Source: a virus
Lineage: Duplodnaviria > Heunggongvirae > Uroviricota > Caudoviricetes
Length of the DNA stretch: 54,993 nucleotides
Direction: 5' to 3' (one strand)
Virus record (IMG/VR): IMGVR_UViG_2923302340_000009
Coordinates: 1 to 54,993 of that record
Within the stretch, counting starts at the first letter, position 1, and each line of letters starts with the position of its first letter. A program made the position numbers and the translations under genes. The notes under the pieces were generated by a model. That model did not search any database. It was not told the origin of the DNA and worked only from the letters and a program-made list of their open reading frames with translations. This document shows positions 18,126-38,174 of the stretch, one piece after another.

Positions 18126-18144
18126 ATCCTCACTTTACAACGGG

Positions 18145-18492
18145 TTATATACGGATTCCAGCGCGTTCCGTTCGTTTCGGGTGCTTCCAGTTGATACCTT
18201 CAAGAAGCATGGATAACTGAGCCGGAGTAAGGTGCACCTTGCCGTCACGGGTGACTGGCCAGACGAAGCGGCCCCGCTCCAGGCGTTTGGTGAAGAGGCA
18301 CAGTCCGTCACTGTCAGCCCACAACACTTTTATCTGGTCACCCCGGCGTCCGCGGAAGATGAACAGGTGTCCGGAGAACGGGTCATCCTTCAGGACGTTC
18401 TGAACTTTTGATGCCAGGCCGTTAAAACCATTTCGCATGTCGGTGATACCGGCAACCAGCCAGATACGCGAACCGGCAGGGAGAGATATCAT
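18145..18492 (-). CDS. tnpB: IS66-family accessory protein TnpB (Orf2)
   Basis: 115 aa; position and size match IS66 Orf2. Confidence 0.8.
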   Translation of the reverse strand: MISLPAGSRIWLVAGITDMRNGFNGLASKVQNVLKDDPFSGHLFIFRGRRGDQIKVLWADSDGLCLFTKRLERGRFVWPVTRDGKVHLTPAQLSMLLEGINWKHPKRTERAGIRI

Positions 18493-19169
18493 CAGTGGCT
18501 GCTCCCTTTCATTTCGCGGATAAGTGTCTGTAATAACGCCGGCGTCAGTTTACCTTTAAGCCTGAGAGTTCCGGCCGGCAGAACCAGCTCGCAGCACAGA
18601 CTGTCTGGCAGTGTATTTATCTGTTCAGGTATCTGCACTGGTGCCGGGATTTTATTATCCGGCTCCGGCGTTAACGTCACGGGAAGTAGCGATGTTTCAT
18701 GTTCGCCGGGCGGCTGCAGGCCGCCGTTACGCCAGAGATGCCGCCAGTTAAAGAGCAGGTTATCGTTGATTCCGTTTTCCCGGGCGATCTGCGCCACACA
18801 GGCTCCGGGCTGCAGTGACTGCTCCACTAAGGCGATTTTAAACTCATAAGGGAAGTTGGGCCGCCGGGGACGTTTTTTTACCACGGGGGCTTCGGATATA
18901 ACGGTGCTTTCAGGACGTACGACTGGTACCGTGGAAAATTGTCCGTAAAGGCAGGCATCAAGTTCCTGCTCCGACATGCCTGCGGGCAAAGGCCACGAAA
19001 GGCCAGCTCTCCGAAAGCGCACGAACATACTACAAACGGTTGATTTTGGTACACCCAGGCGACGCCCGGCCACAACCCGGGGTAAATGTTCTTCAAAGTG
19101 AAGACGTAAAGCTTCAGTGATCCAGGTCCGATGTTTCATACGATAGTGTCCATTAAAAATGATGGACAT
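18492..19169 (-). CDS. tnpA: IS66-family accessory protein TnpA (Orf1)
   Basis: 225 aa with N-terminal HTH-like region; first ORF of the IS. Confidence 0.75.
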   Translation of the reverse strand: MSIIFNGHYRMKHRTWITEALRLHFEEHLPRVVAGRRLGVPKSTVCSMFVRFRRAGLSWPLPAGMSEQELDACLYGQFSTVPVVRPESTVISEAPVVKKRPRRPNFPYEFKIALVEQSLQPGACVAQIARENGINDNLLFNWRHLWRNGGLQPPGEHETSLLPVTLTPEPDNKIPAPVQIPEQINTLPDSLCCELVLPAGTLRLKGKLTPALLQTLIREMKGSSH

Positions 19170-19681: not shown

Positions 19682-20707
19682 TTACGCCAGTTGTACAGAC
19701 ACGAACTCATCAGGGTCAGCCAGCAGCATCAGCGGTGCTGACTGAATCATGGTGAACTCACGCGCCGGGTCGCCGGTGGTCACCCAGTTTTTCGGGTAAC
19801 GGGCAGAGGCGTTAATGCCTTCACGCTGTGCGTCCGCATCCTGAATGCAGCCATAGGTGCGCAGACCGCGTGCCTGAGTGTTCCCCAGCACCATCGTGTT
19901 GTCCGGCAGGAAGTTCTTTTTGACGCCGTTTTCCACGTACTGTCCGGAATACACGACGATGGCCACATCGCCATACATTCCCTTATAAGACACCGCTTTG
20001 CCCAGGTCTTTTACCGCTGTCTCCAGCTCGGAATGAGAGCCGCGACGGGTATCCAGCTTCTCCTTGACGGCCTTGAAGGAACGGAACAGCGCCCAGCCTT
20101 TCGGATCAAACACGATGATATTCACCACACCGCTGGCGTTCAGCGCGTAGGCTTCGATATCGTCGGTCGGGTCATACGTGGACTTGTCACGCTTGCTCCA
20201 CTCCGTGCCGCCGGACTGCGTGATGTTATTCGCCGCACTGCGGCCCATATCCACCTCAACCGGATCGAAGGCTTCACCGGTCATGGTGTATTTGCCCTTA
20301 AGCACGGCAGAAACTGCCTGCATCTCTTCGACCTGGGCAATCGCCAGATTTTCATCCAGCATATTCTGCCGAATAATACGGCGACGACGGTAAGCCGGGT
20401 CAGCCAGGTTCTGCGGATCTTCATCCGGCAGGCGACGCAGGGTCATCTGCGGATTCACCTCATGCTTGGGTTTGACATAACCCGGCGTAAATTCAGAGGT
20501 GGAGCCGCCACGGGATCGGATAACCTCACCGGAAACAATCGGCGAAACGTACAGCGCCATGTTTACCAGTCCCGGAATTTGTGAGAGATAGACTTTCTCC
20601 GTGGTGAAGGGATAGCTCTCACGGAAAAAGAGACGCAGAAACAGCGGATCAAACTTAAATTTCTGCTCATTTGCCGCCAGCAGTTGGGCGGTTGTGTACA
20701 TCGACAT
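19682..20707 (-). CDS. E: major capsid protein E
   Basis: Matches lambda gpE from MSMYTTAQLLAANEQ. Confidence 0.95.
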   Translation of the reverse strand: MSMYTTAQLLAANEQKFKFDPLFLRLFFRESYPFTTEKVYLSQIPGLVNMALYVSPIVSGEVIRSRGGSTSEFTPGYVKPKHEVNPQMTLRRLPDEDPQNLADPAYRRRRIIRQNMLDENLAIAQVEEMQAVSAVLKGKYTMTGEAFDPVEVDMGRSAANNITQSGGTEWSKRDKSTYDPTDDIEAYALNASGVVNIIVFDPKGWALFRSFKAVKEKLDTRRGSHSELETAVKDLGKAVSYKGMYGDVAIVVYSGQYVENGVKKNFLPDNTMVLGNTQARGLRTYGCIQDADAQREGINASARYPKNWVTTGDPAREFTMIQSAPLMLLADPDEFVSVQLA

Positions 20708-20762: not shown

Positions 20763-21095
20763 TTAAACGATGCTGATTGCCGTTCCGGCAAACGCGGTCC
20801 GTTTTTTCGTCTCGTCGCTGGCAGCCTCCGGCCAGAGCACATCCTCATAACGGAACGTGCCGGACTTGTAGAACGTCAGCGTGGTGCTGGTCTGGTCAGC
20901 AGCAACCGCAAGAATGCCAACGGCAGCACCGTCGGTGGTGCCATCCCACGCAACCAGCTTACGGCTGGAGGTGTCCAGCATCAGCGGGGTCATTGCAGGC
21001 GCTTTCGCACTCAATACGCCGGGCGCGGTTGCGGTATGAGCCGGGTCACTGTTGCCCTGCGGCTGGTAATGGGTAAAGGTTTCTTTGCTCGTCAT
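20763..21095 (-). CDS. D: head decoration protein D
   Basis: Matches lambda gpD ([15 protein letters not shown]...). Confidence 0.95.
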
Positions 21096-21104
21096 AAACA
21101 TCCC

Positions 21105-22424
21105 TTACACTGGTGTGTTCAGCAAATCGTTAACGGCATCAGATGCCGGGTTACCTGCAGCCAGCGATGCCGGTGCCCCCTGCATCAGACGATCCAGCGC
21201 AGTGTCACTGCGCGCCTGTGCACTCTGTGGTGCTGCGGCCAGAATGCGGCGGGCCGTTTCCACGGTCATACCGGGGGTTTCTGCCAGCACGCGGGCCTGT
21301 TCTTCGCGTCCGTGAGCCTCCTCACAGTTGAGGATCCCCATAATGCGGCTGTTTTCTGCCGCAACCGCAGCGGTGATCTGCGCGTTCACGTCCGGCTGCG
21401 CCGCGCTGGCGTTTTCGCCCTCCGTCGCTGGCACCACGTCAGTAACGTCAGCCTGCGAAGCAGTGGCTGAAACAGTTGTTGATTGAGTCTCTTTGGTCAT
21501 TCGCCCTCCTGAGAGACGGGATTTACGTGCATCCAGTGCATCACGCATAACGGTGATCGCATCGGTACTGTTAACAAGTTCATCAGCCAGTCCGGCATCA
21601 ATGGCCTCCTGACCGCTGTACACTGCAGCCTCGGTATCCAGCACAGCCTGCACAGACAGGCCGGTATATGCCGACACCTTCTGCGCAAACATCTGGCGGG
21701 TTGCGTCCATCCGGGACTGCAGTGTCTCCCGGACGTCATCCGGAAGATGGCTGTAGGGATTGCCATCCACCTTATGGCTGCCGCTGTAAATCAGCGTGAT
21801 TTCCACGCCCTGTTTCTCCAGCGCAGCACCGTAATTGCTGTGAGCCATCATGACGCCGATGGAGCCTGTCCGGGCGGTCTGCGTGACCAGACGCCGGGAG
21901 GCGGCGCTGGCAAGCAGCTGACCTGCACTGCAGTTCATGTCGTTGGCCAGCGCCCATACCGGTTTTATGTCTCGCACACGGGCGATGATGTCAGCACAGT
22001 CAAATGCTCCCGCCACCATCCCGCCCGGTGTGTCCATATCCAGCAGAATGCCGTCCACCATCGGATCGCTGGCAGCCTGTTGCAGACGGGCGATAATGCC
22101 GTTGTAACCGGTCATCCCCGAGTACGGCTGCAGCGCCCGCGTCCGGCTGACCAGCGTACCGGACACCGGCAGCACGGCGATGCCGTTCATGACCTGATAG
22201 CTGCGGGCCTGTCGTGGTCCGTCATCATCACCGGATATCGCCAGCGCCGCGGGTGCCTCTCCGGCAGTCAGGCTGTCGCCGGATACTGCATCCGTCAGGC
22301 GGCTGATCCCAAGCTGGCCTGCAAGCGCACAAAAGAAAACCCGCGCATAGGCGGGTTCAAGCATCAGCGGCTCATTAAAAGCCATGCTGGCAATATGCGG
22401 GAGATTACGCAGCTCTGCTGTCAC
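21105..22424 (-). CDS. C: head protease/minor capsid protein C (with in-frame scaffold Nu3)
   Basis: Matches lambda gpC from VTAELRNLPHIASMAF (GTG start); overlaps 3' end of B. Confidence 0.9.
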   Translation of the reverse strand: MTAELRNLPHIASMAFNEPLMLEPAYARVFFCALAGQLGISRLTDAVSGDSLTAGEAPAALAISGDDDGPRQARSYQVMNGIAVLPVSGTLVSRTRALQPYSGMTGYNGIIARLQQAASDPMVDGILLDMDTPGGMVAGAFDCADIIARVRDIKPVWALANDMNCSAGQLLASAASRRLVTQTARTGSIGVMMAHSNYGAALEKQGVEITLIYSGSHKVDGNPYSHLPDDVRETLQSRMDATRQMFAQKVSAYTGLSVQAVLDTEAAVYSGQEAIDAGLADELVNSTDAITVMRDALDARKSRLSGGRMTKETQSTTVSATASQADVTDVVPATEGENASAAQPDVNAQITAAVAAENSRIMGILNCEEAHGREEQARVLAETPGMTVETARRILAAAPQSAQARSDTALDRLMQGAPASLAAGNPASDAVNDLLNTPV

Positions 22425-23184
22425 TCTTCTCCTCCTCTGTTGATTGTCGCAGTCCGGATTCAAATGCCGCAGCCGCCCAGGCGGGCGGTTTAAGACCGGC
22501 TGCACGGCGCTCCATCGTTTCACGGACCTGCTGGGCAAAAATTTCCTGATAGTCGTCACCGCGTTTTGCGCACTCTTTCTCGTAGGTGCTCAGTCCGGCT
22601 TCTATCAGCATCACCGCTTCCTGTACTTCTTTCAGACCATCGATGGCCATACGACCGGAGCCTATCCAGTCACAGTTCCCCCAGGCACTGCGGGCTTCCT
22701 GAAAGCTGAAGCGCGCTTTTGAAGGTAACGTCACCACGCGGCGAACGATGGCCTCTTCCAGCCAGCACAGAAACATCTGGCTCGCCTGACGGGATGCGAC
22801 GAATTTTCGCCGCCCCATAAAGTACGCCCACGACTCGTTCGCGCTGGCCCGTGCCGTGGAGTAGCTCATCTGGGCGTAATTCCGGGAAAGCTGCTCATAC
22901 GAGACACCCAGCCCGGCAGCGATATACCGCAGCAGTGACTGCTCAAACACGGAGTAGCCGTTATCCGTATCCTGAGCCGTCTGCAGGTTCAGTGAGTCAC
23001 CCGGCATCAGGTGCGGCACTTTTGCGCCTCCAAGCCGGACCGGCGCTGCGGCGTAATACGCGGCAATTTCACCAATCCAGCCGGTCAGCTTGTCCCGCTG
23101 CTCCTGACTGTTCGCGCCCAGAATAAAATCCATCGCTGACTGCGTATCCAGCTCACTCTCAATGGTGGCGGCATACATCGCCTT
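22405..23184 (-). pseudogene. B: portal protein B, C-terminal segment (codons 277-533) separated from N-terminal segment by the inserted island
   Basis: MYAATIESELDTQSAMDF... to end matches lambda gpB C-terminus; preceding codons KA retained at the junction. Confidence 0.9.
23172..23184. repeat. left copy of 13-bp direct repeat (catacatcgcctt) bounding the island; putative att core
   Basis: Same 13-mer with one mismatch (cataaatcgcctt) at 34071..34083; lambda portal sequence is continuous across one copy. Confidence 0.7.
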
Positions 23185-23256
23185 TATGAAAAGACAGGAA
23201 AAAATAAAATTTAAAAACAGTACATTACGAATGCTCAGACCTATCGTTTAAAGGAG

Positions 23257-23280
23257 TCGCAATACACACTGCAATACACG
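23257..23280. repeat. two tandem copies of GCAATACAC motif near left island end (putative integrase/AlpA arm sites)
   Basis: tcgcaatacacac tgcaatacacg; same motif three times at right end 33894..33947. Confidence 0.5.
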
Positions 23281-23619
23281 ATTATTTATAAGATGAGCGG
23301 CATCCGTCATAAAGCTGGTGGATGCTTTTTCTATGCATATATGCACAGTTTTAGTGGGCGTTAATGTCGATATAGGGATCCCCATATCGAGATTGGATAC
23401 CTGGCTTTTTTCCGGTTAACCTTTAATCAGGCTGGTGGGCTTTACCTGTTTTGTATGAGTGGTCATCATGACCATGTCATAACAAAAACCCCATATTCGT
23501 GGTTTTTCTGTGTCGGGCTATTCTGTCGTTGCTGTGCTGATTTGGCTGGTGGGCTGAATCATCATTACGGCGATGCAGCTATGTAGACGTTCCGGCCTCC
23601 TCAAATTGAGGATTGTGGA

Positions 23620-23980
23620 AGAATCAATGGGTTAGTCTTACTTTCCCGACATCCCCCAATGGGGGTTTTCGAAACAATCAATAGCTTAGGCTTACTTCCC
23701 CGATTTCCTGCATTGCAGGTTTTCGAAATAATCAATGGGTTAGGCCATCGTGCAATTTTGCACTTTGCCAGCCAGCGCAATGTCGCGTTATCAGTCCTCA
23801 GATGTGAGGGATGTAGCCAGCTTTTCCCCCAGTGGGGGATATCCAGCACCGACGGCTTAACTGTGCGTGCCAGCACAAGGTAGCCTTGAACTACTTACTG
23901 CATCCCATCTTACAGGCCGTGCCTTCCTGCTTAACTTTTTGCAATGCAACAAGTCAGCCAGCGCAATTTTGCGTTATCGG
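23620..23980. repeat. array of about 54-bp periodic repeats (aatcaatRgSttagg) each followed by a short GC palindrome and ttttcgaaa
   Basis: Three units starting near 23622, 23676, 23730; palindromes cccccaatggggg, cctgcattgcagg, gtgcaattttgcac, cccccagtggggg; second family cagccagcgcaatNNNgcgttatc twice. Confidence 0.5.
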
Positions 23981-23993
23981 GAATATCAGCAAG

Positions 23994-24275
23994 TTACCGC
24001 CGCAATCGTTCCGGCTTCTTCCACTGGTAAGTATTTTTCGCGCTCTCCCTCCGTTGTTGAGAAAGGCGACGATATGCCAGCAACTCAAGGACTCTTGTTC
24101 GTATGTTGCGCATATCCACGCCGTTAAGCTCAATACCGTCACGGCGCATCACCTCAGCCACTACACGCACATAATTATCTGCGGTCACGCTGTCCGGCTG
24201 CGTGGCCTGTTCGTCATGCTGCTTGCTGATTCCACAAGCACGGCGGATTAATCGCAGTATTTCGGATTCAGTCAT
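23994..24275 (-). CDS. hypothetical protein (island packaging module)
   Basis: 93-aa ORF 11 nt downstream of TerS-like gene; no recognisable family. Confidence 0.45.
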   Translation of the reverse strand: MTESEILRLIRRACGISKQHDEQATQPDSVTADNYVRVVAEVMRRDGIELNGVDMRNIRTRVLELLAYRRLSQQRRESAKNTYQWKKPERLRR

Positions 24276-24286
24276 AGCGTACTACG

Positions 24287-24829
24287 TTACTTATCTTTAT
24301 TCGGCTGCAACTTATCCGGTACGTTTCCGGCAGTTTCCATCAGATAATCGGACAGCATCAGCGGTATGTTTTCGTCAAGTTTTGCGCATGCGTTACAGGC
24401 TCTGATAACTTCTTTTTTCAGTCCATCCAGCATAGACGGCTTCATGTCGGGAAACTTCCTTGTCATGGCAAGCGGCAGGCTGTCCATGATTGAAGAAATC
24501 TGACTCGCCAATTTTGAAAGCACGTATATACAAAACGCTGTATCAATAACGTCGCCGCGTTCGCGCTCGTTTTTAAGCTCCTGCGCCTCTGCCTGTGCTG
24601 TCAGCAATCTGATCCTGACTCGTAGGAGTTCATCATCATCAATCTCGCCTTTGTCGTCTGTAATCTGGTTAATTGCATTGCTAACCCGATTGTCTATTAC
24701 GCTGGCAACATCATAAAACGCCTCGCGGCCTTTACGTTCAACGGGAGTCACTCCCCACTTGTCGAACGCTGTCGCACTTACACGGCAGCTTTGCGCCATG
24801 TTTTTTTTGTTCATCAGGTGCGATTTCAT
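24287..24829 (-). CDS. terminase small subunit-like protein (lambda Nu1 homologue) encoded by the island
   Basis: Aligns with lambda Nu1 core LTRAQADAQELKN...AFCTFVLSRIAGEIASILDGIPL; ATG at 24829 preceded by GGGGA; lies downstream of island cos. Confidence 0.75.
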   Translation of the reverse strand: MKSHLMNKKNMAQSCRVSATAFDKWGVTPVERKGREAFYDVASVIDNRVSNAINQITDDKGEIDDDELLRVRIRLLTAQAEAQELKNERERGDVIDTAFCIYVLSKLASQISSIMDSLPLAMTRKFPDMKPSMLDGLKKEVIRACNACAKLDENIPLMLSDYLMETAGNVPDKLQPNKDK

Positions 24830-24940
24830 CAATATCCCCACTTAAGTAATGTTTCAGGTTGGTGTATTGACTTTATCTTTTCCTTTTTATTCATAGAGAT
24901 AGAGCGAACAACAAAACCACCACCAGCACCCGAAAAAGGC

Positions 24941-25010
24941 TCATAAATAGCGAAAACCCGCGAGGTCGCCGCCCCGTAGCCTACCGGATCACCGGAAAGG
25001 ACCCGCCAGC
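24941..25010 (-). other. island cos site with canonical lambda-type cosN (GGGCGGCGACCT) and lambda-like cosQ-side flank, divergent cosB side
   Basis: Plus strand aaatagcgaaaacccgcg AGGTCGCCGCCC cgtagcctaccggatcaccggaaaggacccgcc (cosN 24963..24974); paralogous to prophage cos at about 37700. Confidence 0.75.
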
Positions 25011-25030
25011 CAGAGCGGGCCCTAATTTCA

Positions 25031-25414
25031 TCAACCAATCAGCTTATAGCGACCATCCCGTGCATTGCGGCGTACACGCTCAATCTTGAGGCATAGCGCC
25101 GCATCTGGCTTTTTTGGGACAGGTACGCGGCAATATTCAGAAGCGCGAGGAATATTATTTATCCAGTCGATCACTTCACTTAAATACCAGGCCTTACGCC
25201 CTTCCGTAACCTGCACACGCTCCGGGAACTCTCCACTAGCCTCAAGGTTTAGCAGTGTACGACGACTCAGGGTTGTAATTTCCATCACCTGATTCATATC
25301 AACAAGGCGCTCGCTTAAACACATTTTGTCAGCGATAGCTTTTAATTCCTCTACAGCTGGATTCGGGTACATCATTTCGGCAATTGGCTTAAGGTCATTG
25401 TAATCATTCTGCAT
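25031..25414 (-). CDS. AlpA-family HTH protein (second copy, in packaging module)
   Basis: Motif ITTLSRRTLLNLEASGEFPERVQVTEGRKAWYLSEVIDWI; strong SD AGGGGGA. Confidence 0.65.
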   Translation of the reverse strand: MQNDYNDLKPIAEMMYPNPAVEELKAIADKMCLSERLVDMNQVMEITTLSRRTLLNLEASGEFPERVQVTEGRKAWYLSEVIDWINNIPRASEYCRVPVPKKPDAALCLKIERVRRNARDGRYKLIG

Positions 25415-25425
25415 TGTATCCCCCT

Positions 25426-25767
25426 TTACACACGAGCCAGCGGCTGAACAGAAATACCTGAGCCAACAAACGCTGCAACCTTTACTGACAGTTCTTTAAC
25501 AGACTCAGGCCAGTTCAGAGCATCAACATTTAAGACACCTGTCTTATAGACCTGAGCCTGTGTTTTTTTCGCGGTGTCGATTTGTACAGCGGAAACATAA
25601 ACCGCTTTACCTACGCTCGAACCATCCCATACCACCAGTGCACCTGTTGCATCTTCCTGCATCAGTGGCGTAAATGCAGGAATTACCCCTTTATTAGCTG
25701 AAAATATCCCCAGCGTAGTCACCAGTGCTTCAGTGCCAGCCATGAGTTCAGTGTAATGAGTAGCCAT
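25426..25767 (-). CDS. head decoration protein, lambda gpD-like (island paralogue)
   Basis: 113 aa alignable to lambda gpD (PAFTPLM...VWDGSS...); SD AGGGGGAG. Confidence 0.75.
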   Translation of the reverse strand: MATHYTELMAGTEALVTTLGIFSANKGVIPAFTPLMQEDATGALVVWDGSSVGKAVYVSAVQIDTAKKTQAQVYKTGVLNVDALNWPESVKELSVKVAAFVGSGISVQPLARV

Positions 25768-25776
25768 TGCTCCCCC

Positions 25777-26823
25777 TTAGCCAATGCGAACGGTAACAAA
25801 ACGATTGATGCGGGCCGGTATTGGCTGTGGTGCTGAATGTGTCTGCACATATTCAATAGCCGGATCACCAGGCACAATATAGTTTTTCGGTGCAAGTTCG
25901 GCTTTAGTCAGCCCCATTCGGATTAGCTCCGGATCCTGAATACCGCCATAGGCGACAATCCCCTGAAGAGCCGTATTGCCAAGCACCATCAAATCAGGAT
26001 CAAGGAAATGTTTTTCTGTTCCGTCCTCGTCGGTATAACGCCCGCTGTAAACAACAATCGCAACATCGCCCATATACCCTTTAAAACTCACCGAATCACC
26101 AAGGTCTTTAAGGGCCGTTTCCAGTTCGGAATTAGAACCACGACGGGTATCCAAAGCCTCTTTTATCGCTCTGAATGAACGGTATTTCTTCCATACATTA
26201 CCACCCATAATGATGATATTAGTGACGCCCTCACTAAATTCTGCGTAGCTCTCAATATCATCATTTGGATCAAAAGTTTCTTTATCCTTACCTGACCACT
26301 CAGTACCGCCAGACTGAGTGATGATATTTTGTGGTTTTATATTCCAGTCCAGCTCATAACGTTCAATACCATCGCCCTCAATGATATTTTTCCCCGTTGT
26401 GATTGCCTGAACAGCAAGCCATTCAATACGTGCACGAATAGCTTTAGCCTGATTTACAATCGCCTGTTTAACTTTAATATTACGCGCCCCAAAAGCATTG
26501 TATTGCTCAGGTGACACACCAGCAGGGCGCACAGCTAACTTATTTGGATCAATGCTGCTTTTCGGCTTCATATAACCTGGACGAATTGTTTTTGATTCGT
26601 ATCCCTCATCTCGTGAAACTTTACTGCCCACCATAGGAGAGCAAAACGCCGCGATCGGGATATTTGGATCGTCGATCGTATCAAGAATAATGTCTCTCGA
26701 TTCAAACATTACCGAGCGAGTGAAAAACAAACTGGTAAACAACGCATTTAATTTTTTTTGCACATCTTCAGCATTAGCCACCTGCACAAGCTGTGTAGGC
26801 GAATATAAATCAACCATACTCAT
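25777..26823 (-). CDS. major capsid protein, lambda gpE-like (island paralogue)
   Basis: Roughly half identity to lambda gpE by eye across C-terminal two-thirds (QSGGTEW...LDTRRGSNSELETA...VAIVVYSG); start at MSMVDLYS with SD AAGAGGA. Confidence 0.8.
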   Translation of the reverse strand: MSMVDLYSPTQLVQVANAEDVQKKLNALFTSLFFTRSVMFESRDIILDTIDDPNIPIAAFCSPMVGSKVSRDEGYESKTIRPGYMKPKSSIDPNKLAVRPAGVSPEQYNAFGARNIKVKQAIVNQAKAIRARIEWLAVQAITTGKNIIEGDGIERYELDWNIKPQNIITQSGGTEWSGKDKETFDPNDDIESYAEFSEGVTNIIIMGGNVWKKYRSFRAIKEALDTRRGSNSELETALKDLGDSVSFKGYMGDVAIVVYSGRYTDEDGTEKHFLDPDLMVLGNTALQGIVAYGGIQDPELIRMGLTKAELAPKNYIVPGDPAIEYVQTHSAPQPIPARINRFVTVRIG

Positions 26824-26988
26824 CCTCTTTACATTCATTACAAATAATTGTGAATATATTCTATTACCGATGTCTGCTATGCGAACACATGCAACCAAGT
26901 GCAATGTTGTATAAAATATGCCGTAACAACTTCAGTGCTGATAATTCGTGTTAATGTATTTACTTCCTTTGGTCGGGATTTATGTAGC

Positions 26989-27028
26989 ATGCCGGAAAAT
27001 CTATTTTTTTCCGGCATCTTTTTGTTTG
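26989..27028 (+). terminator. plus-strand hairpin with T-tract between island ssb and capsid genes
   Basis: atgccggaaa / tttccggcat 10-bp stem followed by ctttttgtttg on plus strand; both neighbouring genes are on minus strand. Confidence 0.35.
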
Positions 27029-27034
27029 CAGAAT

Positions 27035-27457
27035 TTAAAACGGTATATTATCGCCGTACGGATCATCATTCCCCGACTGTTGTTTTGCCCTGTTCAGTGC
27101 GTCAGTGGCCTGCCCCTGCTGGCCTTTTTTGCCGCCCGGTCGCGCCGTTCGCGCACTGATTACGCTGTCTGCGATAACCTGCCAGCCCCGCCGCGTTTCG
27201 CCGTTCTGGCCTGTCCACTGGCTTACCTGCATGTTACCCGCCACGCTCACCAGTTCGCCTTTGTGGTGTTTTGCCAGTGCGTCGGCCTGTCTGCCAAACG
27301 CCAGGACGGATAACCACATCGTCGCCGTTCCGTCATCTGCCTGGCTGCACGGCAGGGGAACCGCCATACTCGCCATCGCCATTTGTGTCCCTTTGCTGGT
27401 GGTCTTTAACTGCGGGTCAGCCACCAGCCGCCCGTAAGCCGCTATCTGTGCTGTCAT
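27035..27457 (-). CDS. ssb: single-stranded DNA-binding protein (SSB-like)
   Basis: 140 aa with Gly/Gln-rich linker and acidic C-terminal tail DDPYGDNIPF typical of SSB. Confidence 0.75.
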   Translation of the reverse strand: MTAQIAAYGRLVADPQLKTTSKGTQMAMASMAVPLPCSQADDGTATMWLSVLAFGRQADALAKHHKGELVSVAGNMQVSQWTGQNGETRRGWQVIADSVISARTARPGGKKGQQGQATDALNRAKQQSGNDDPYGDNIPF

Positions 27458-27768
27458 GCTGTCTGCTCTCCGGTTTTAACATTGATGGTTGTCACCTGTT
27501 CCGCTTCGGCAATCTCCCGTTCTGTCAGCGTGGCAAAGTTTGCCGCTGCTGTGGTCATAAATGCGCTTATCAGGTCGGGATGTTCCTTCGCGTATCCTGC
27601 CCGTGTGTGGTGGTCTATCGCTTTGATTGCCACCTTTAAGGAAAGCTCTGTCATGTCTAACGCTTTATATTTTGCCTGTGTTCTGTCTCTGCGAATTTTG
27701 GTCATTTGTCGCCCCTGATTCATGTTTTCGGCTGGCATGTTTGTTAAGTGATTTTTATGTATGCGCAT
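27454..27768 (-). CDS. hypothetical protein translationally coupled to ssb
   Basis: 104-aa ORF; stop overlaps ssb ATG (ATGA). Confidence 0.45.
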   Translation of the reverse strand: MRIHKNHLTNMPAENMNQGRQMTKIRRDRTQAKYKALDMTELSLKVAIKAIDHHTRAGYAKEHPDLISAFMTTAAANFATLTEREIAEAEQVTTINVKTGEQTA

Positions 27769-27819
27769 TTATTTTCACCCCCCCTCGTTTAAAAAGTTTT
27801 TAGTTGTGCCTCCCCCCCT

Positions 27820-28045
27820 CTACCCATCTACCCGAATGCTCATCATGTCAGTAATGGCGCCGCTTTCAGCGGGTAGATAGCTTTTTTGACTCCTCTACCT
27901 GCCGTCTACCCTGCTACCTGAAACTGATAAAATCAGGTAGAAGAGGTAGAGAGCTTTTATTAGCCTTCTACCTAGCCCTATATCCACTTATCATGTTGAA
28001 TAATATGCATTTATTTCGTTCAGGTAGATGGGGTAGATGGCTTTT
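27820..28045. repeat. iteron cluster (GGTAGA / TCTACC motifs, about 12 copies in both orientations); putative island replication origin
   Basis: ctctaccc, atctaccc, gggtagat, aggtagaagaggtagag, ggtagatggggtagatgg immediately upstream of primase gene. Confidence 0.7.
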
Positions 28046-28053
28046 ACAAAAAA

Positions 28054-29808
28054 TTATAAAAACGCGTCGCAATCGTCTGTTGTAATTGCGTTGGTCTGCG
28101 TTACTCCCTTAACTTTTCGCGTAATATATTCATGCCCGTAAACTTTCGCCGCTGGCTTCATGGCCTTGCTGAACTCAGCCACGTTTAGCGGTTTGCTCCT
28201 GCCCGCGTATGCCATAAACGCCAGATAGACGCGGTAAAGGCTGTTCCTGGTCGTGTACTTCACTGAATCACCACCGCCACCCATCATCAGGCCGCGCGCT
28301 TCCTCCAGAAAATTCAGGAACTGGCAAAACTCAATAACCGGATCCGTCTGTTGCTTTATTGCCAGTGCTTCATCACCGTCACGCTGTTCCAGTAGTAAAG
28401 CCCGTGCCTTCTCAGGGTCGGTAAAGTTCGCCAGCAATCGGCGGATAATAACGGGGATTTCAGCCGCAATCTTTTCCGGTAGCTCCCTGTCTTTTTCGGC
28501 CTCACTGACGATATTGTCGAAACGGAAAATCACGCGACGACGTGCCACACCTCCGGCCCGTTCGGTGAATATCATCGGGTTGTTGTTGGTCGCCAGCACC
28601 ACCGCCCTGATTACCGCCGTGAAACGCTTTTCATATTTCGGGTTAATTTCCACGGGGTCGCCGCCTGTGATTTTCTTGATGCCCGTTCCTTCGCCTGTAT
28701 ATTTCGGCTGGTCAGCCAGGACGATAAGACGACTCCCGACAACCTGCGCACGTCCACCAGCATCATCAAGCGATGTCATTTCAGCGCTTACCGTGTTCTG
28801 TTTCCCTGCCAGAAGGCTGGCTATGTGTGTGAATGTACTTTTACCGCTCCCGCCGTCTCCGGTGGCCTCAATAAACATCTGCCAGTCGTACCGGTTCGCC
28901 ATAATCATGTACAGCGCGGCACATATACGCATCATCTTGCGCGGGTCTTTTCCGGCTGCGTGCTCAAGCCATTTATGAAAGTTTGGCGCGTTATCGCGGA
29001 TGTTCTCCCCTGGTGCTGGTGGCGTGTACTCAATGCCGTTGTGCGTGGTGATCCAGTTCTCCGGCGTGTGCGGGGAAAATTCCCCCGTTTTCAGGTCAAG
29101 CGCACCATTGGCGAACGGCAGCAAATCGCCAGACGGCTCGCCCATTGGTTCGGCAATAACTTTTAACGCTTCCACGGCGTTATTGATTACGCGCTTGCTG
29201 AAAGTGGCCCTGTGCTCTGAATAGATCGCCACCATTTCGCGGCTAAGTTCCATTGTGCTGACCGGACACCATACCCCGCCGCGCCATACGTGAACGATTT
29301 CACTTTCAGGATGTACGCAAACGCCATCAAAGCGATCGGCAAGCAACTGCGCGCGCTCACTGTCCGCCATCTGCGAAAGTTGCGCCTTTTGCTTTACCGG
29401 AAGCTCAATGACCAGACCATCAGAAAGATTCTGGCGTTCACGGGCCAGATATTCGCGCCAGGTCTGCACCTCCTGGCCGTGCATACCCTCAGGATAAAAA
29501 TTTGCATCCTGTACGCCTGCTGCCGCCAGCTTCTGACCAATCGCCTTTATCATTACAGGCGCAAGATATCCGGCCCTGTATATGCGTGCTGATTTTCGGC
29601 CTTCCGGCACAATTTGCAGATTATCCAGTTCGGATAGCTGCTGCTCCCCAAGCCACACAGGAGGCTCATTATCTCCGGCCATACGCGCATCATGTTCCTG
29701 CCATTGTTTCGCGTGTGCCCAGGCATCACTACCCGCAAAAATAATTACTTCTGTTCCTTTGTGTTTTATGCCGCGTGACTGCTGTTTTACGTTCGGTGCC
29801 AGTTTCAT
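28054..29808 (-). CDS. primase-helicase (P4 alpha-like replication protein with P-loop NTPase domain)
   Basis: 584 aa; Walker A GDGGSGKST; adjacent iterons; translationally coupled to upstream ORF. Confidence 0.75.
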   Translation of the reverse strand: MKLAPNVKQQSRGIKHKGTEVIIFAGSDAWAHAKQWQEHDARMAGDNEPPVWLGEQQLSELDNLQIVPEGRKSARIYRAGYLAPVMIKAIGQKLAAAGVQDANFYPEGMHGQEVQTWREYLARERQNLSDGLVIELPVKQKAQLSQMADSERAQLLADRFDGVCVHPESEIVHVWRGGVWCPVSTMELSREMVAIYSEHRATFSKRVINNAVEALKVIAEPMGEPSGDLLPFANGALDLKTGEFSPHTPENWITTHNGIEYTPPAPGENIRDNAPNFHKWLEHAAGKDPRKMMRICAALYMIMANRYDWQMFIEATGDGGSGKSTFTHIASLLAGKQNTVSAEMTSLDDAGGRAQVVGSRLIVLADQPKYTGEGTGIKKITGGDPVEINPKYEKRFTAVIRAVVLATNNNPMIFTERAGGVARRRVIFRFDNIVSEAEKDRELPEKIAAEIPVIIRRLLANFTDPEKARALLLEQRDGDEALAIKQQTDPVIEFCQFLNFLEEARGLMMGGGGDSVKYTTRNSLYRVYLAFMAYAGRSKPLNVAEFSKAMKPAAKVYGHEYITRKVKGVTQTNAITTDDCDAFL

Positions 29809-30104
29809 TTTTTACCTCTGAATCCGTTAATCATGGTTTTCATTTTCTGGATATTTCCCCACGCTTTTTCCCTGCTGATGGGCTTACTGCGGGGTGCGGC
29901 ATATACCAGGGAAAAATCACGCCGGAACTGATAAACAGGCATCACGCAGTCATAGCTATACCCCTCACGGCGGTAAGTGATGCGCCGTTCTGCCACGCCT
30001 TTAATCGTTACCGTGCCGCCGTATTTATCGCGGTAAATATCGCCGTTCATAAATTCAGGTCGAGCGGGGCCGCTGGCAATAAAGCCAGAATTTTTCATTT
30101 CCAT
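29805..30104 (-). CDS. hypothetical protein
   Basis: 99-aa ORF whose stop overlaps primase start. Confidence 0.45.
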   Translation of the reverse strand: MEMKNSGFIASGPARPEFMNGDIYRDKYGGTVTIKGVAERRITYRREGYSYDCVMPVYQFRRDFSLVYAAPRSKPISREKAWGNIQKMKTMINGFRGKK

Positions 30105-30121
30105 ATTATTTATTCCTCGAC

Positions 30122-30343
30122 TTAACTCGACTTATTTGATAGCAGGGCACTATTTATTGCGTCATTGAGTTTTTCTGCTGATTCATCAATAAGTGACAAC
30201 AGGCCATAAGCAATATTTGCATCTTCATTGTCATTTATGCAATCAAGCCACATATTTAATATTGCTTTTGCTGAATTATTTAAAGTTAATGAACTTTCTG
30301 CACATGCTAACAATTTAAAAAAGACTTCCCGTTCTGTATTCAT
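30122..30343 (-). CDS. hypothetical small protein
   Basis: 73-aa ORF in tightly packed three-gene array. Confidence 0.4.
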   Translation of the reverse strand: MNTEREVFFKLLACAESSLTLNNSAKAILNMWLDCINDNEDANIAYGLLSLIDESAEKLNDAINSALLSNKSS

Positions 30344-30535
30344 TTAATCCCCCACCAGCTTACTTTCTTCCTCAATCAAAAAACTAGCGACACTTCCCGA
30401 AAGACGCGCCAGTAGGCTCGCCAGTGCGGATATATCAGCATCTGTAATTTTGTTCGGGTATACCTCAAGAAGGCGGCAAATAATTTCTGTCTGGTGCGCA
30501 CGTTCAGCGGCTTCGTGTAATGTAATTTCCTGCAT
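30344..30535 (-). CDS. hypothetical small protein
   Basis: 63-aa ORF abutting neighbours. Confidence 0.4.
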   Translation of the reverse strand: MQEITLHEAAERAHQTEIICRLLEVYPNKITDADISALASLLARLSGSVASFLIEEESKLVGD

Positions 30536-30720
30536 TAATGCACCTCTTTTAATTCATACACTGCTGAAATAATGACTTGTGATAAGCCATATTCTGATGA
30601 TTCGCTTCTCACCGCAGCAATAGCCGTCTGAACATTAACAGCCTTCACATTCTGAGCGATACCAATTGTGTGGCCTATTGGGTTAACAGCTCGGGCAAAT
30701 ACACGGAAGGTTTTAAGCAT
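30535..30720 (-). CDS. hypothetical small protein
   Basis: 61-aa ORF with SD GGGAG; first gene of minus-strand array. Confidence 0.4.
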   Translation of the reverse strand: MLKTFRVFARAVNPIGHTIGIAQNVKAVNVQTAIAAVRSESSEYGLSQVIISAVYELKEVH

Positions 30721-31001
30721 GACTCACTCCCTGGCGGATTTTTGCAGCGAATACAGCAACACAACCGGACGGGCAACGGCTACGCGCTTCGCGTTCCGTC
30801 CAGGCGGTTACGTGGATGATTTGAGATTCTCCGGCACTCAGTGCCAGAAAACGCCACACAAAGGCCGTTTGTGTGTGTACAAGGTGTGGTATATGATTTA
30901 CAGCAACCATAACGGCTCCTAGTTTACGTTGTTGGTTAGACGCCCCGTATGTGTTCCCAGCACTGCGGGGCGTTGCTCTTTGTATTTCAACAATCCTTTC
31001 G

Positions 31002-31034
31002 GTGTGTTTCATGTTATGAGCGCATGAAACACAC
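31002..31034. promoter_or_regulatory. 12-bp perfect inverted repeat (gtgtgtttcatg N9 catgaaacacac) in divergent intergenic region; putative operator
   Basis: Lies between minus-strand small-gene array and plus-strand gene at 31101; half-site gaaacacac recurs at about 31071. Confidence 0.5.
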
Positions 31035-31100
31035 GTCAAGGCTTTTTGTATTTCTTTTTTTGTGTATACTGAAACACACCGATGATTAGGAGTTTCAGAA

Positions 31101-31406
31101 ATGGCAACGGCTAACAAAAACGCAAAATCACAACTGACAACTGTCAGAGTCCCACTAGATGTTATGCAAGGGATGGAATCCGTTAAGCTGGACGGTGAAA
31201 GCAATGCCGGATTTATCGTAACCGCCATGCGCGGAGAAATAGCCCGCCGCCAAGCAGAAGGCAGCGGAGAAAATCCCCTTGTGTCGTCACTGGATGCCCT
31301 GGCTAAGGTCGAACAAATCGGCATCAAAGCAGCCGAGGAGATCGGGCAACTCGTCACCGTCGCGCGTGAAGAACTCCAGCGACGCAAGGTCAAAGAGCAT
31401 GAATAG
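31101..31406 (+). CDS. hypothetical protein, candidate island regulator
   Basis: 101-aa ORF with SD AGGAG; divergent from small-gene array; downstream of operator-like repeats. Confidence 0.5.
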   Translation: MATANKNAKSQLTTVRVPLDVMQGMESVKLDGESNAGFIVTAMRGEIARRQAEGSGENPLVSSLDALAKVEQIGIKAAEEIGQLVTVAREELQRRKVKEHE

Positions 31407-31463
31407 CCAATATCAGCGCCATAGTTTGAGGAACGCAGGCGCATTGCTTTACAGGACAGCACC

Positions 31464-31643
31464 ATGAGCGACACAGAATCAACCAAAACACCATCACCAA
31501 CTCGTAAGAGACGACGCAAAAATATAGCGCATGAACATGAATCAGAAAGATTCGCACCTTGTTCGTTTGCTCTTGAGAAATTCCTTAAAGAGCACAGGAA
31601 AAAGCTCTCGTTGCAAACCTTGGAACGAACCAAATCTGACTGA
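31464..31643 (+). CDS. hypothetical small basic protein
   Basis: 59-aa ORF (not in track, below 60 aa) MSDTESTKTPSPTRKRRRKN...; followed by terminator. Confidence 0.3.
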   Translation: MSDTESTKTPSPTRKRRRKNIAHEHESERFAPCSFALEKFLKEHRKKLSLQTLERTKSD

Positions 31644-31709
31644 TCACATTGCCCACCAGCCGCAAATGTGGCATTGTTGGTGATGCTTTTGTTTTCCCTT
31701 GTTCCCACT

Positions 31710-31740
31710 GGCGACCCTTTTGCGGTCGCCTTTGTTTTGT
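31710..31740 (+). terminator. rho-independent terminator for plus-strand island genes
   Basis: ggcgacc-cttttgc-ggtcgcc hairpin followed by TTTGTTTTGT. Confidence 0.55.
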
Positions 31741-32318
31741 CACTGAATGCGGTTACCAAAGTAAAACTCAGGCTGATATTCACGTATCAGCGTTTTTTCT
31801 TCTTCCTCCAGCTCACGCTTTTTGCGCTTACATGCCTGTAGCTCCCTCCCCTTCTCGCTGGCACTTATTTGATATTGCTCTTTACGGCGGGAAAAATCCT
31901 GTAATGCACCCCACGGGATACCATAAGTCCCCGTTTTTCTGATACCTGGTATCACATTTCTGAATACCCAGTTACTGAAACGATGAGCAAATGTGCCAGG
32001 CGTCGTTGCTTTGCGGCTGCGGGCTATTAGTTTGTAGAAACCTGACTCAGAGATAATTCTCATATTCTGATTTCCTCCTGGGGTGTAAGTTAAATTTACT
32101 CCCTTTTCATCATCATCAAGCATCTGCAACGCCGTACGCGAATTGGTTAGTTCCAGCGCAGCACAAACATCTTTTGCAACAAACCACGGATCGCCGTTCA
32201 GATACACCACACGAACGTTCACACTATCAAAGCGCAGAACGACGAGATCACGAATATCGCAGAATTTTTTCACTGGACGAGCGTACCCCTTGCCCGTCAC
32301 GGCAATATTTTTATTCAT
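31740..32318 (-). CDS. BRO-N domain protein (antirepressor-like)
   Basis: N-terminal VVLRFDSVNVRVVYLNGDPWFVAKDVCAALEL resembles Bro-N/KilA-N family. Confidence 0.65.
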   Translation of the reverse strand: MNKNIAVTGKGYARPVKKFCDIRDLVVLRFDSVNVRVVYLNGDPWFVAKDVCAALELTNSRTALQMLDDDEKGVNLTYTPGGNQNMRIISESGFYKLIARSRKATTPGTFAHRFSNWVFRNVIPGIRKTGTYGIPWGALQDFSRRKEQYQISASEKGRELQACKRKKRELEEEEKTLIREYQPEFYFGNRIQ

Positions 32319-32334
32319 CGCGTTTTTACCTTAT

Positions 32335-32361
32335 AGACAAAAAACCCCTCGTGATGAGGGG
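32335..32361 (-). terminator. rho-independent terminator downstream of alpA
   Basis: On minus strand cccctcatcacgagggg followed by TTTTTTGTC. Confidence 0.55.
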
Positions 32362-32374
32362 CATTATTTACTGG

Positions 32375-32632
32375 TTATTGCTGTTTTGTTTTTCCAGGTT
32401 TCCATCCAGGATGCCACTCACCACGGATCCATGCCTGAACCTCTGAAAGTCGATACCCTGCAGCACGTTCACCGATCTTGATACGTCGCGGGAATTTACC
32501 TGCCTGCTCCATTTTCCAGCGTGTTGAGTTTGCCAGCGTGGTAAGTGCTATGCACTCTTTTTCACGAATGAACCGATCAATGTCCTTCATTGTGCGCAAA
32601 TCGTTTTCATCAACAAGAGAATAAATTGCCAT
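32375..32632 (-). CDS. alpA: AlpA-family transcriptional regulator/excisionase-like protein
   Basis: 85 aa; ...FPRRIKIGERAAGYRLSEVQAWI motif; immediately downstream of integrase. Confidence 0.75.
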   Translation of the reverse strand: MAIYSLVDENDLRTMKDIDRFIREKECIALTTLANSTRWKMEQAGKFPRRIKIGERAAGYRLSEVQAWIRGEWHPGWKPGKTKQQ

Positions 32633-32633
32633 A

Positions 32634-33875
32634 TCACACCACCTCTTTATTAAGCTCGATAACGTTGTTGTTAAATCCTGCTATCGTATTAAGGTAATTA
32701 ACCCACATATTAAGCACCTCAAGTTTTTTCTTTATATGCCTGCTTTTATTGTAAACACCAGCAACCCCTTTCACTTTATGACCTAAAAGAAGTTCGACAA
32801 TATAAGGATCCGCCCCCATATCATTAAGCGTAGTGGAAAATGTGCGCCTGAAATCATGTATGCACCACAAGCCATTAGTATCATGACCAAGACGCCTGCA
32901 TATTCTGTTTGCAGCCCCTGTTATTGTCGCCCTTTGCAAAGCACAACCGACAACATAACCGCGATTTTTTGTTTCTGCGTAAAGATTAACGATCCATTGT
33001 TTTATTCCGTCAGGAACAGGCCTTACTATAGCCTCCTTGTTTTTGCTGTGCTCTTTTGGGACTGTCCATACCCAGTTTTTTAAATCCCATTCGTCCCAGG
33101 TGGATAGCCTCGCCTCCTGCTGTCGGCAACCAAACACCAGGCAGATAACCATTATTCTTCGGTTATATATTGATGACAGAGTTAGCAAATTATTACCGTA
33201 AGCATAAGACCATACATCAGCGGTTTCATTGATATTAAGAACGCGATCCCTTATACCGGATGAGCGCCCGACATAACTTACGTTAATATCTCCAAAGGGA
33301 TCGCACGCGATGTATTGCCTGACGCGACAAAAACGCAACGCCTGTTTGATATCAAGAAAAATTGCACCAGACATAACAGGCGCATTTTTTTTGATCCTGT
33401 CAAAGACGGTAAGCCATGTGTGTAATTTGCACTGTTCTATAGCCATATCACCGATATAGGGGAAGATATGCTTTTCAAATCGTTTTATTAAATATTCATG
33501 CTCTTTTCTGGCTGTTGTGGCGTGATTGTCGTACCAGTAAAACAGCGCATCCCTTACGGTCACTGGTTGCATAGTTTTTTCGGCAGCAAGTTTTATTTGC
33601 CTGCGGGGGTCCAGATTTTCAGCCAGCCATTCACGGCACTGATCACGCATGCGCCTGGCCGTTGCAAGAGACATGTCAGGATAGCGACCAAGTGTAAGCC
33701 ATACCGGAGGGAATTCCCTGCCACCAAGACGATAGTAAAAAACAAAGCTGATCCCCCCAACCATGCTTACACGCACAGACAACCCGCGCCCATCCGCTAT
33801 TGTTTTTTGTTTGTCCTGCCGTTTTCCGACAAGACTCTTTAACAGTTTGTCACTGAGTTTGTTTTCAATAGCCAT
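32634..33875 (-). CDS. int: P4-type tyrosine integrase
   Basis: 413 aa; P4-like N-terminal arm-binding region and C-terminal HDFRRTF...LLGH...Y catalytic region; adjacent to island end. Confidence 0.85.
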   Translation of the reverse strand: MAIENKLSDKLLKSLVGKRQDKQKTIADGRGLSVRVSMVGGISFVFYYRLGGREFPPVWLTLGRYPDMSLATARRMRDQCREWLAENLDPRRQIKLAAEKTMQPVTVRDALFYWYDNHATTARKEHEYLIKRFEKHIFPYIGDMAIEQCKLHTWLTVFDRIKKNAPVMSGAIFLDIKQALRFCRVRQYIACDPFGDINVSYVGRSSGIRDRVLNINETADVWSYAYGNNLLTLSSIYNRRIMVICLVFGCRQQEARLSTWDEWDLKNWVWTVPKEHSKNKEAIVRPVPDGIKQWIVNLYAETKNRGYVVGCALQRATITGAANRICRRLGHDTNGLWCIHDFRRTFSTTLNDMGADPYIVELLLGHKVKGVAGVYNKSRHIKKKLEVLNMWVNYLNTIAGFNNNVIELNKEVV

Positions 33876-33893
33876 TAAAAGCCCTCAAGAGAT

Positions 33894-33947
33894 TTGCAAT
33901 ACACACCCATCCCGATCGCCAATTTGCAATACACATTGCAATACACA
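33894..33947. repeat. three direct copies of TTGCAATACACA next to integrase start (putative arm-type binding sites)
   Basis: Copies at about 33894, 33924, 33936; same motif at left island end. Confidence 0.55.
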
Positions 33948-34023
33948 AAACCGCGAAAAACTGGAAGGGTGATGAACGGTCATCAAAAGCATGGAAAACG
34001 ACATTCCAGACGCAGCAAGGGTT

Positions 34024-37004
<2,981 letters not shown>

Positions 37005-37550: not shown

Positions 37551-37699
37551 TGTTCATTCCACGGACAAAAACAGAGAAAGGAAACGACAGAGGCCAAAAA
37601 GCCCGTTTTCAGCACCTGTCGCTTCCTTTCTTTTCAGGGGGTATTTTAAATAAAAACATTAAGTTACGGCGAAGAAGAACGGAAACGCCTTAAACCGGA

Positions 37700-37760
37700 A
37701 AATTTTCATAAATAGCGAAAACCCGCGCGCCTTCCGCCCCGTAGCCTGCCGGATCGCCGG
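37700..37760 (-). other. prophage cos region with variant cosN (GGGCGGAAGGCG instead of GGGCGGCGACCT)
   Basis: Flanks match lambda cosQ and cosB sides; 12-nt cosN at about 37728..37739 differs from lambda at 5 positions as I recall it. Confidence 0.6.
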
Positions 37761-38174
37761 AAAGGACCCGCCAGCCATTCGGGTTTACTTCACAATGGGA
37801 TTTAATATCTGAACGACCAAAGTCGTGCGGCCACGGTCGCACAGACCTGAATACACGTCCTGTTTCTTCCACCCCCGCACAGGACTGGCGAGCATGAGGG
37901 ACAAACCCGCGAATCATAAACGCGGTAAAAACCCGGTGTGCATCGTTTTTGATTATTCCCGCACACTCGCGCAGAAGGAATTCCCCGTCGGGCTACGGTC
38001 ATGGTTAATGCGGGAATACGGCGACGATACAGCGCATAATGTGTCAGGCTTGAATACCTTTATCGAATCCCGGTAACGAATTCTCCTGACGTTCCAGTCA
38101 GGTGATGATATGCATGGTGAGATTCAGATATGAAAAAGCCCCGCTAAAAGCGAGGCCATAAATCACTTAATATC

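Follow-up and report, generated by a model that had tools for sequence, protein, structure and literature searches.

Why would a phage satellite keep a major capsid protein and a decoration protein of its own when the rest of its head appears to be borrowed from a helper? The question is raised by a 54,993-nucleotide stretch of Caudoviricetes DNA (IMG/VR record IMGVR_UViG_2923302340_000009; the whole stretch, at its full length, is hereafter called the window), in which an island of 10,899 bp within a lambda-like prophage encodes relatives of lambda gpE and gpD, designated island E and island D below. We identify the segment with near certainty as the capsid-morphogenesis module of a Gram-negative, helper-embedded phage-inducible chromosomal island (PICI) that splits portal gene B of the lambda-like prophage of Escherichia coli CFSAN018748.

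The window is a 100% match to the chromosome of that strain (NZ_CP028192.1). Within it, the island spans 23181..34079 on the minus strand, a delimitation provided by its attachment (att) cores and by a published catalogue entry, and its genes are co-oriented with the prophage late operon, with all annotated genes except one on the minus strand. The core AAGGCGAT is found at both island ends, at 34076..34083 (attL, minus strand) and at 23177..23184 (attR, minus strand), as expected of group B:Phage_portal_2:241, for which the att core is given as 'aaggcgat' (PMC10111431). Close to each end lies a GTGTATTGCA doublet (23259-23279 on the attR side and 33924-33947, within 33890-33947, on the attL side), a likely candidate for the 'doubled motif' of helper-embedded PICIs, to which the integrase would bind as an arm-type site. 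The helper portal gene is cut at positions 237/238 of the Pfam model Phage_portal_2: its N-terminal part (34078..34905, minus strand) covers model positions 2-237 and its C-terminal part (22405..23178, minus strand) positions 238-354. When the flanks are joined they read ...AIVKAMYAATIE..., which restores the gene; the island itself carries no replacement portal sequence.

Membership of the helper-embedded PICIs rests on the catalogue of Tommasini et al. 2023, whose Supplementary File 3 lists this exact element as Eco8563.11.B_Phage_portal_2_241 (CP028192.1/4037383-4026485, GCA_003030245.1, aaggcgat; PMC10111431), coordinates that convert to 23181-34079 of the window. SatelliteFinder counts 'capsid morphogenesis' among five core PICI components, and elements possessing all five come overwhelmingly from E. 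coli (PMC10085698); the island contains every one of them, namely integrase, AlpA, primase-replicase, capsid morphogenesis and small terminase. Its size is within the range of about 10-15 kb expected of a PICI, it is mostly unidirectional, and it is without tail, lysis, portal and large terminase genes. Together with its portal flanks, it is present at a coverage of at least 80% in 53 of 5,426 complete E. coli genomes.

An earlier reading of the window from its letters alone (hereafter, the original prediction) had proposed that the island is a satellite, that it possesses a capsid and a decoration gene but no portal, protease, scaffold or large terminase, and that it borrows portal, protease/scaffold, connectors, terminase and tail from a lambda-like helper. 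Gene content and the catalogue entry bear out the first of these proposals. As to the second, Pfam, PHROGs and the RefSeq annotation detect among the island's open reading frames (ORFs) no portal, protease, scaffold, large terminase, tail or lysis gene, nor any head-tail connector or HNH gene. Further morphogenetic genes hidden in the island were also considered, and Pfam and PHROGs scans of the remaining ORFs found none. The proposed dependence on a helper follows from this gene content and from published work on related elements. The original prediction was silent on three features described here: the island's own exact cosN, its Nu1-like small terminase and the insertion into portal gene B.

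Island E (25777..26817, minus strand) is a satellite major capsid protein of 346 aa, of the lambda gpE family and HK97 fold, and island D (25426..25767, minus strand) is a satellite head decoration protein of 113 aa from the gpD/SHP family. Both genes are real and intact, as originally supposed. Island E matches Pfam Phage_cap_E with E = 2.9e-41 across positions 4-327 of 329 and PHROG 29 'major head protein' with E = 2.1e-89, while island D matches Pfam HDPD (E = 4.5e-15) and PHROG 49 'head decoration' (E = 1.3e-25). In the structure database, island E matches over practically its whole length both PDB entry 3BQW (E = 1.1e-121), described there as 'putative capsid protein of prophage, E. coli CFT073', and lambda gpE 7VI9 (E = 8.7e-78); residues 7-347 of island E (counted from the ATG at 26823) pair with 4-340 of 7VI9. 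A structural comparison with lambda gpE, which the original prediction had put forward as a check, gave the same fold: the AlphaFold2 model of island E (mean predicted local distance difference test score, pLDDT, of 76.7, with low confidence at residues 56-74 and 86-89) has a template modelling (TM) score of 0.86 to 3BQW and of 0.80-0.83 to lambda gpE, and a domain has been neither added nor lost. Island D is closest to the phage 21 protein SHP (1TD0, E = 4.7e-16), with lambda gpD next (E = 1e-11); its assignment as a gpD/SHP-family decoration protein is thus made by family and structure-database match. The D start lies 9 nt past the E stop codon. Good ribosome-binding sites had been claimed for the two genes and both are visible, AAGAGGA 5 nt ahead of the ATG at 26817 for E and GGGGGAG ahead of the ATG at 25767 for D; the spacing makes 26817, which is also the RefSeq start, a likelier start of E than the 26823 first assumed.

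The two genes belong to a lineage separate from that of their counterparts in the resident prophage. Island E is 42% identical over its full length to prophage E (19682-20707), in keeping with the earlier description of the two as clearly diverged, and island D is 37% identical to prophage D. The corresponding values against c1499 and c1500 of EcCICFT073, the E. coli model PICI, are 55% and 54%, and on these sequence comparisons the two pairs are orthologous. A tblastn search of 50,697 phage records returned lambda as the best phage match to island E, at 42.1%, and no record exceeded 60%. From a protein database of 5.8 billion sequences, the best 120 matches included 104 full-length (320-370 aa) proteins, which split into two groups with one chimeric exception. 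In the first, identity to island E is 52% or more and to helper E no more than 47%; in the second, identity to island E does not pass 44% and that to helper E runs from 47% to 97%, with a single member below 55%. First-group members at 75%, 59% and 52% identity all reside within int-alpA-primase-E-D islands (Serratia, Edwardsiella, Lelliottia), which adjoin fis in Serratia plymuthica, lie inside a portal gene in Edwardsiella tarda and again adjoin fis in Lelliottia. Gene order follows the same division: E precedes D in every satellite examined, whereas D precedes E in helper prophages, including the one in the window (D at 20763-21095 and E at 19682-20707, both on the minus strand). The passages of the PICI literature available to us make no mention of this inverted order as a satellite signature.

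Both genes are under strong purifying selection. Between the window and a chromosomal PICI at clpS/cspD, the nonsynonymous (dN) and synonymous (dS) divergence of E amount to 0.109 and 1.39, a ratio of 0.078; against a helper-embedded PICI that targets the capsid gene, dN/dS of E is 0.052. For D, the ratio is 0.089. Both frames are intact in all E-D loci inspected, and the module occurs at a coverage of at least 80% in 395 of 5,426 complete E. coli genomes. Lineage, gene order, selection and prevalence together indicate that E and D are in use, neither recently captured nor decaying. The pair is thus an old, constrained, satellite-specific module. Three other origins were entertained and rejected. 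Recent capture from the resident helper is excluded by the identities given above, which are lower to helper E and D than to the EcCICFT073 genes, and by the inverted order; capture from another sequenced phage is excluded by the search of 50,697 records, none above 60% identity; and the intact frames and dN/dS of 0.05-0.09 eliminate the pseudogene status that the original prediction had named, for the capsid gene, among the outcomes that would undo it.

Three relatives outside the window deserve separate description. The Edwardsiella tarda island (L009, 1786-11908) is a helper-embedded PICI at the same portal-gene site, and its late zone consists of the E-D pair only; neither a recognisable small terminase nor a lambda-type cosN was found in it, so the pair is kept there even without packaging genes. 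In Lelliottia sp. SL45 (L010, 10001-12752), the PICI adjoining fis has E and D, in that order, followed by an S49 peptidase of the lambda gpC-type protease/scaffold family, together with a Phage_HCP-family protein near alpA, a head-gene content between that of classical and that of capsid-forming PICIs. The chimeric capsid protein, P0043, derives from one ENA contig of 4,432 bp: in alignment, its first two-thirds are all but identical to helper-type E (87-100% per block of 30 columns), its last third is 100% identical to island E, and the junction falls within the conserved DTRRGS...VVYSG region. It is either a true helper-satellite recombinant or a metagenome assembly chimera.

Among characterized elements, the closest comparison is EcCICFT073 (Fillol-Salom et al. 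2018, 2019). The two have in common the succession of int, alpA, primase, capsid, decoration, small protein, cosN, packaging-specificity protein and a 93-aa gene, the last of which encodes proteins 75% identical in the two islands, and both combine a lambda-type cosQ/cosN with a private cosB. EcCICFT073 differs in being chromosomal, adjoining phoQ, whereas the present island sits in a prophage; it relies on Rpp to commandeer the small terminase of the helper, where our island has a full Nu1-like small terminase; and the small protein after its decoration gene is unrelated to ours. In EcCICFT073, c1499 is a capsid gene and c1500 one for head decoration (PMC6092414), a pair represented by the crystal structure 3BQW, and 21 of the 29 reference Gram-negative PICIs have a capsid gene (PMC10111431). 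The original prediction had held that classical PICIs carry only remodelling factors; this premise is incorrect, and with it falls the novelty claimed for the island. The element itself, its embedding in a portal gene and the occurrence of capsid and decoration genes in E. coli PICIs have all been published previously and are not new. As a listed member of group B:Phage_portal_2:241 (Tommasini, Mageeney and Williams 2023), with the same accession, coordinates, size and att core, the island shows no structural difference from that group; what this strain adds is a helper bearing an IS66-family insertion and an altered cosN.

Other satellites resemble the island in part. The capsid-forming PICIs (cf-PICIs, prototype EcCIEDL933) likewise encode an HK97-fold capsid protein and have an int/alpA/replication backbone common with classical PICIs, but their gene set extends to a portal, protease, head-tail connectors, HNH protein and both the small and the large terminase, and they assemble small capsids of their own; of these genes, portal, protease, connectors, large terminase and HNH are missing from our island, which is therefore no cf-PICI. 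The Ccm protein of SaPIbov5 is also a satellite homologue of a helper major capsid protein in a cos-packaged island. Ccm, however, redirects assembly to small capsids, none of which have been seen for EcCICFT073, and no decoration partner of Ccm is mentioned in those literature passages that we could consult. Satellite P4, likewise an enterobacterial cos element, resembles the island in its primase, its AlpA-like regulator and its related integrase, but it remodels P2 capsids with Sid and Psu and encodes no capsid protein; Pfam and PHROGs scans revealed no Sid-, Psu- or Delta-like protein among the island proteins.

An exact copy of the lambda cohesive-end sequence, GGGCGGCGACCT, forms the island cosN (24963..24974, minus strand). 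Its cosQ side is lambda-like; divergence from lambda cosB begins right after '...CGCTATTTATGA', and the cosB side is island-specific, matching the retention of cosQ/cosN and the differing cosB described for E. coli PICIs (PMC6739421). The same position for cosN, after the helix-turn-helix (HTH) gene and before the small terminase or Rpp gene, is seen in three other PICIs (L002, L004, which is EcCICFT073, and L008). The satellite small terminase (24287..24829, minus strand) is Nu1-like, matching Pfam Phage_Nu1 with E = 3.5e-24 over profile positions 80-162 only, and its 37% identity to prophage Nu1 is concentrated in the C-terminal half, the N-terminal, DNA-binding half having diverged. In lambda, the C-terminal half of Nu1 (residues 100-181) binds gpA (as cited in PMC6739421). 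By analogy with the logic of Rpp (PMC6739421), we infer that the N-terminal half of the island protein may read the island's own cosB while the C-terminal half recruits the helper large terminase. Packaging of the Rpp type was considered for the island and rejected: the island small terminase bears no similarity to the protein that occupies the Rpp position in EcCICFT073.

The original prediction had also reasoned that a 10.9-kb monomer is too small for a T=7 lambda head and that either a smaller capsid or packaging of about four tandem copies would be needed; for the four copies, the arithmetic agrees. Four copies amount to 43,596 bp, 90% of the 48,502 bp of lambda, and three to 32.7 kb (67%). 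Lambda heads accept roughly 78-105% of genome length; three copies would fall below this range, and packaging of tetramers in T=7 heads is thus expected. The expectation agrees with EcCICFT073, whose packaged DNA is all phage-sized and for which no small capsids were seen (PMC6092414).

The helper in this strain is a lambda-like prophage on the minus strand which, from high to low coordinates, reads Nu1, A, W, B, C, D, E, FI, an IS66-family insertion, FII, and Z through J. The IS66-family element (tnpA, tnpB and an ISCro1-like transposase) occupies 16554-19169, between the head genes FI and FII. The helper cosN at 37728-37739 (minus strand) reads GGGCGGAAGGCG instead of GGGCGGCGACCT, whereas the canonical site is intact in three further helpers that harbour this island (L005-L007). 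The cosQ-side flank of the altered site (flanks 37640-37830) resembles the island cos more than it does the cos of other helpers. Recombination in the cos region, or an inactivating change, may account for the altered site.

From the published behaviour of related elements, a life cycle can be proposed. Induction of the helper would switch the island on through late transcription and AlpA, excision at AAGGCGAT would restore the portal gene, and the island would replicate from its own primase and origin. Its small terminase would then bind the island-specific cosB, the conserved C-terminal half recruiting the helper large terminase, and concatemers would be cut at the lambda-type cosN, about four tandem copies (43.6 kb) filling each lambda-sized head. 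Island E and D might assemble with, or replace, helper gpE and gpD on the helper portal and scaffold. Our tentative suggestion for the pair, possible but by no means assured, is a function as accessory shell subunits that are of use but not needed as long as the helper supplies E and D. This suggestion draws on two points: a cognate decoration protein would be useful only on the expanded, DNA-filled shell of its partner, and both genes are constrained. Considered as a whole, the account that combines a PICI capsid module, this life cycle and an accessory shell role is the best explanation and, in our judgement, reasonably probable.

Several observations weigh against it. Conservation is what suggests incorporation of island E and D into particles, and the knockouts of EcCICFT073 do not bear it out: deletion of either c1499 or c1500 left both transfer and lambda interference unchanged and did not restore lambda plaquing (PMC6092414), and a search of post-2019 publications for a function of the PICI capsid/decoration pair uncovered nothing past these 2018 knockouts. 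A sigma-70-like promoter match just upstream of E (26858..26885, minus strand) is weak, agreeing with consensus at 9 of 12 positions in a region with fewer sigma-70-like matches than shuffled sequence. Finally, the IS66-family insertion and the non-canonical cosN indicate that the helper is probably not competent here, in which case the island may be trapped in this strain if no other lambdoid phage comes to its aid.

How, then, do other functions for the pair compare with an accessory one? A strong version of the original prediction would have island E and D form an obligatory shell of their own on a borrowed portal, protease/scaffold and terminase, possibly a smaller capsid for one or two copies. 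The genes are intact, co-translated and under strong purifying selection, their lineage is separate from phage E both in the 50,697 phage records and among the 104 full-length proteins, the Edwardsiella portal-site island keeps them without a recognisable small terminase, and a decoration protein presumably makes sense only on an expanded, filled shell. An obligatory shell is nevertheless improbable: EcCICFT073 transfers equally well with c1499 or c1500 deleted and packages its DNA at phage size, and island E aligns with lambda gpE end to end, with small gaps only and in the same fold, providing no sequence sign of a different triangulation number. Alternatively, E, D or both could be poison or decoy subunits that mis-assemble with gpE or titrate the helper scaffold or portal, thereby lowering helper yield. 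There is precedent in SaPIbov5 Ccm, a capsid homologue that blocks its helper by redirecting capsid size (cited in PMC6092414), and another route of interference would be useful to an island without Rpp, the dominant interference factor of EcCICFT073. Yet the deletions gave no relief of lambda interference, although Rpp may mask an effect, and a poison role leaves the co-conserved decoration protein unexplained; we regard interference as unlikely.

A different proposal, from Tommasini et al., is that satellite E is a backup copy, supplying capsid function while a helper late gene is interrupted; the module would have reached the present island by recombination with relatives that target the capsid gene. 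Indeed, a helper-embedded PICI lodged in a helper E gene (L003) shares the module at 99% (E) and 100% (D) identity, the E-gene site is the commonest among helper-embedded groups (201 of 491), and an internal stop breaks the helper E of strain EC93, in which satellite E is intact. The interrupted gene here is the portal, however, not E, and the island has no portal to offer; the same pair occurs in chromosomal PICIs that interrupt no phage gene (L002, L004, L008, L010), and excision restores the helper gene anyway. For this island, the backup proposal seems to us quite unlikely. That the pair is a functionless, decaying relic of a captured helper late-gene block would fit the silent deletions of c1499 and c1500, but is exceedingly improbable given dN/dS ratios of 0.05-0.09 at dS of up to about 1.4, intact frames in every inspected E-D locus, the 395 E. 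coli genomes that hold the module, a gene order inverted relative to phages, and a phage search that found no donor above 60% identity. A conditional role of E and D with particular helpers is a further alternative.

The remaining island genes complete the picture of a PICI. On the minus strand lie a tyrosine integrase (32634..33875; Pfam Arm-DNA-bind_3 and Phage_integrase), an AlpA regulator/excisionase (32375..32632; Phage_AlpA, E = 5.4e-14), a Bro-N protein in the 'Bro zone' (31740..32318; Bro-N, E = 4.9e-20), a primase/replicase (28054..29808; D5_N, DUF5906 and Pox_D5) and a single-stranded DNA-binding protein, SSB (27035..27457; Pfam SSB, E = 5.5e-16). Two 27-nt direct repeats at 27933..28046, just downstream of the primase gene, are likely candidates, by their position, for replication-origin iterons, and PICI origins have been located 3' of pri (PMC6092414). 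Between the D-like gene and cos, a second AlpA-family HTH protein of 127 aa is encoded (25031..25414, minus strand; Phage_AlpA, E = 7.6e-09; PHROG 2790, E = 1.1e-49), and the last island gene specifies a conserved protein of 93 aa (23994..24275, minus strand; PHROG 1561, E = 1.6e-54). Further products comprise YlcI/YnfO, an Icd-like peptide, a DUF4222 protein and several small ORFs without family assignment. An Rfam scan of the island for C4/isrK-type RNA regulators returned nothing at E values up to 0.1. Three tandem 54-nt repeats, each with a short palindrome, lie at 23592-23753, between the last island gene and attR; they have no Rfam match, their folding is not significant (z = -1.5), and among the loci fetched they are confined to this island lineage.

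With the element, its embedding and its gene content already on record, what the analysis does is to sharpen a question: why do satellites keep a private capsid/decoration pair for which deletion has shown no phenotype? Helpers with an interrupted or pseudogene E constitute natural test cases for the function of E and D. In E. coli EC93 (NZ_CP061329.1; L005, 1083-2108), helper E is annotated as a pseudogene and the embedded satellite E is intact, so that this strain offers a ready-made setting in which head building by the satellite capsid protein could be examined. It may be, though we think it rather doubtful, that the E-then-D pair is a selected, satellite-only set that builds, or helps to build, the capsids around PICI DNA on the portal, scaffold and protease of the helper. 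If this is true, islands of this kind would represent a 'shell-only' intermediate between classical and capsid-forming PICIs. The contribution of the pair would then have been masked in EcCICFT073 by redundancy with helper E and D, and it would become indispensable with any helper whose E is interrupted or dead, examples being the helpers of capsid-gene-targeting helper-embedded PICIs and that of strain EC93.

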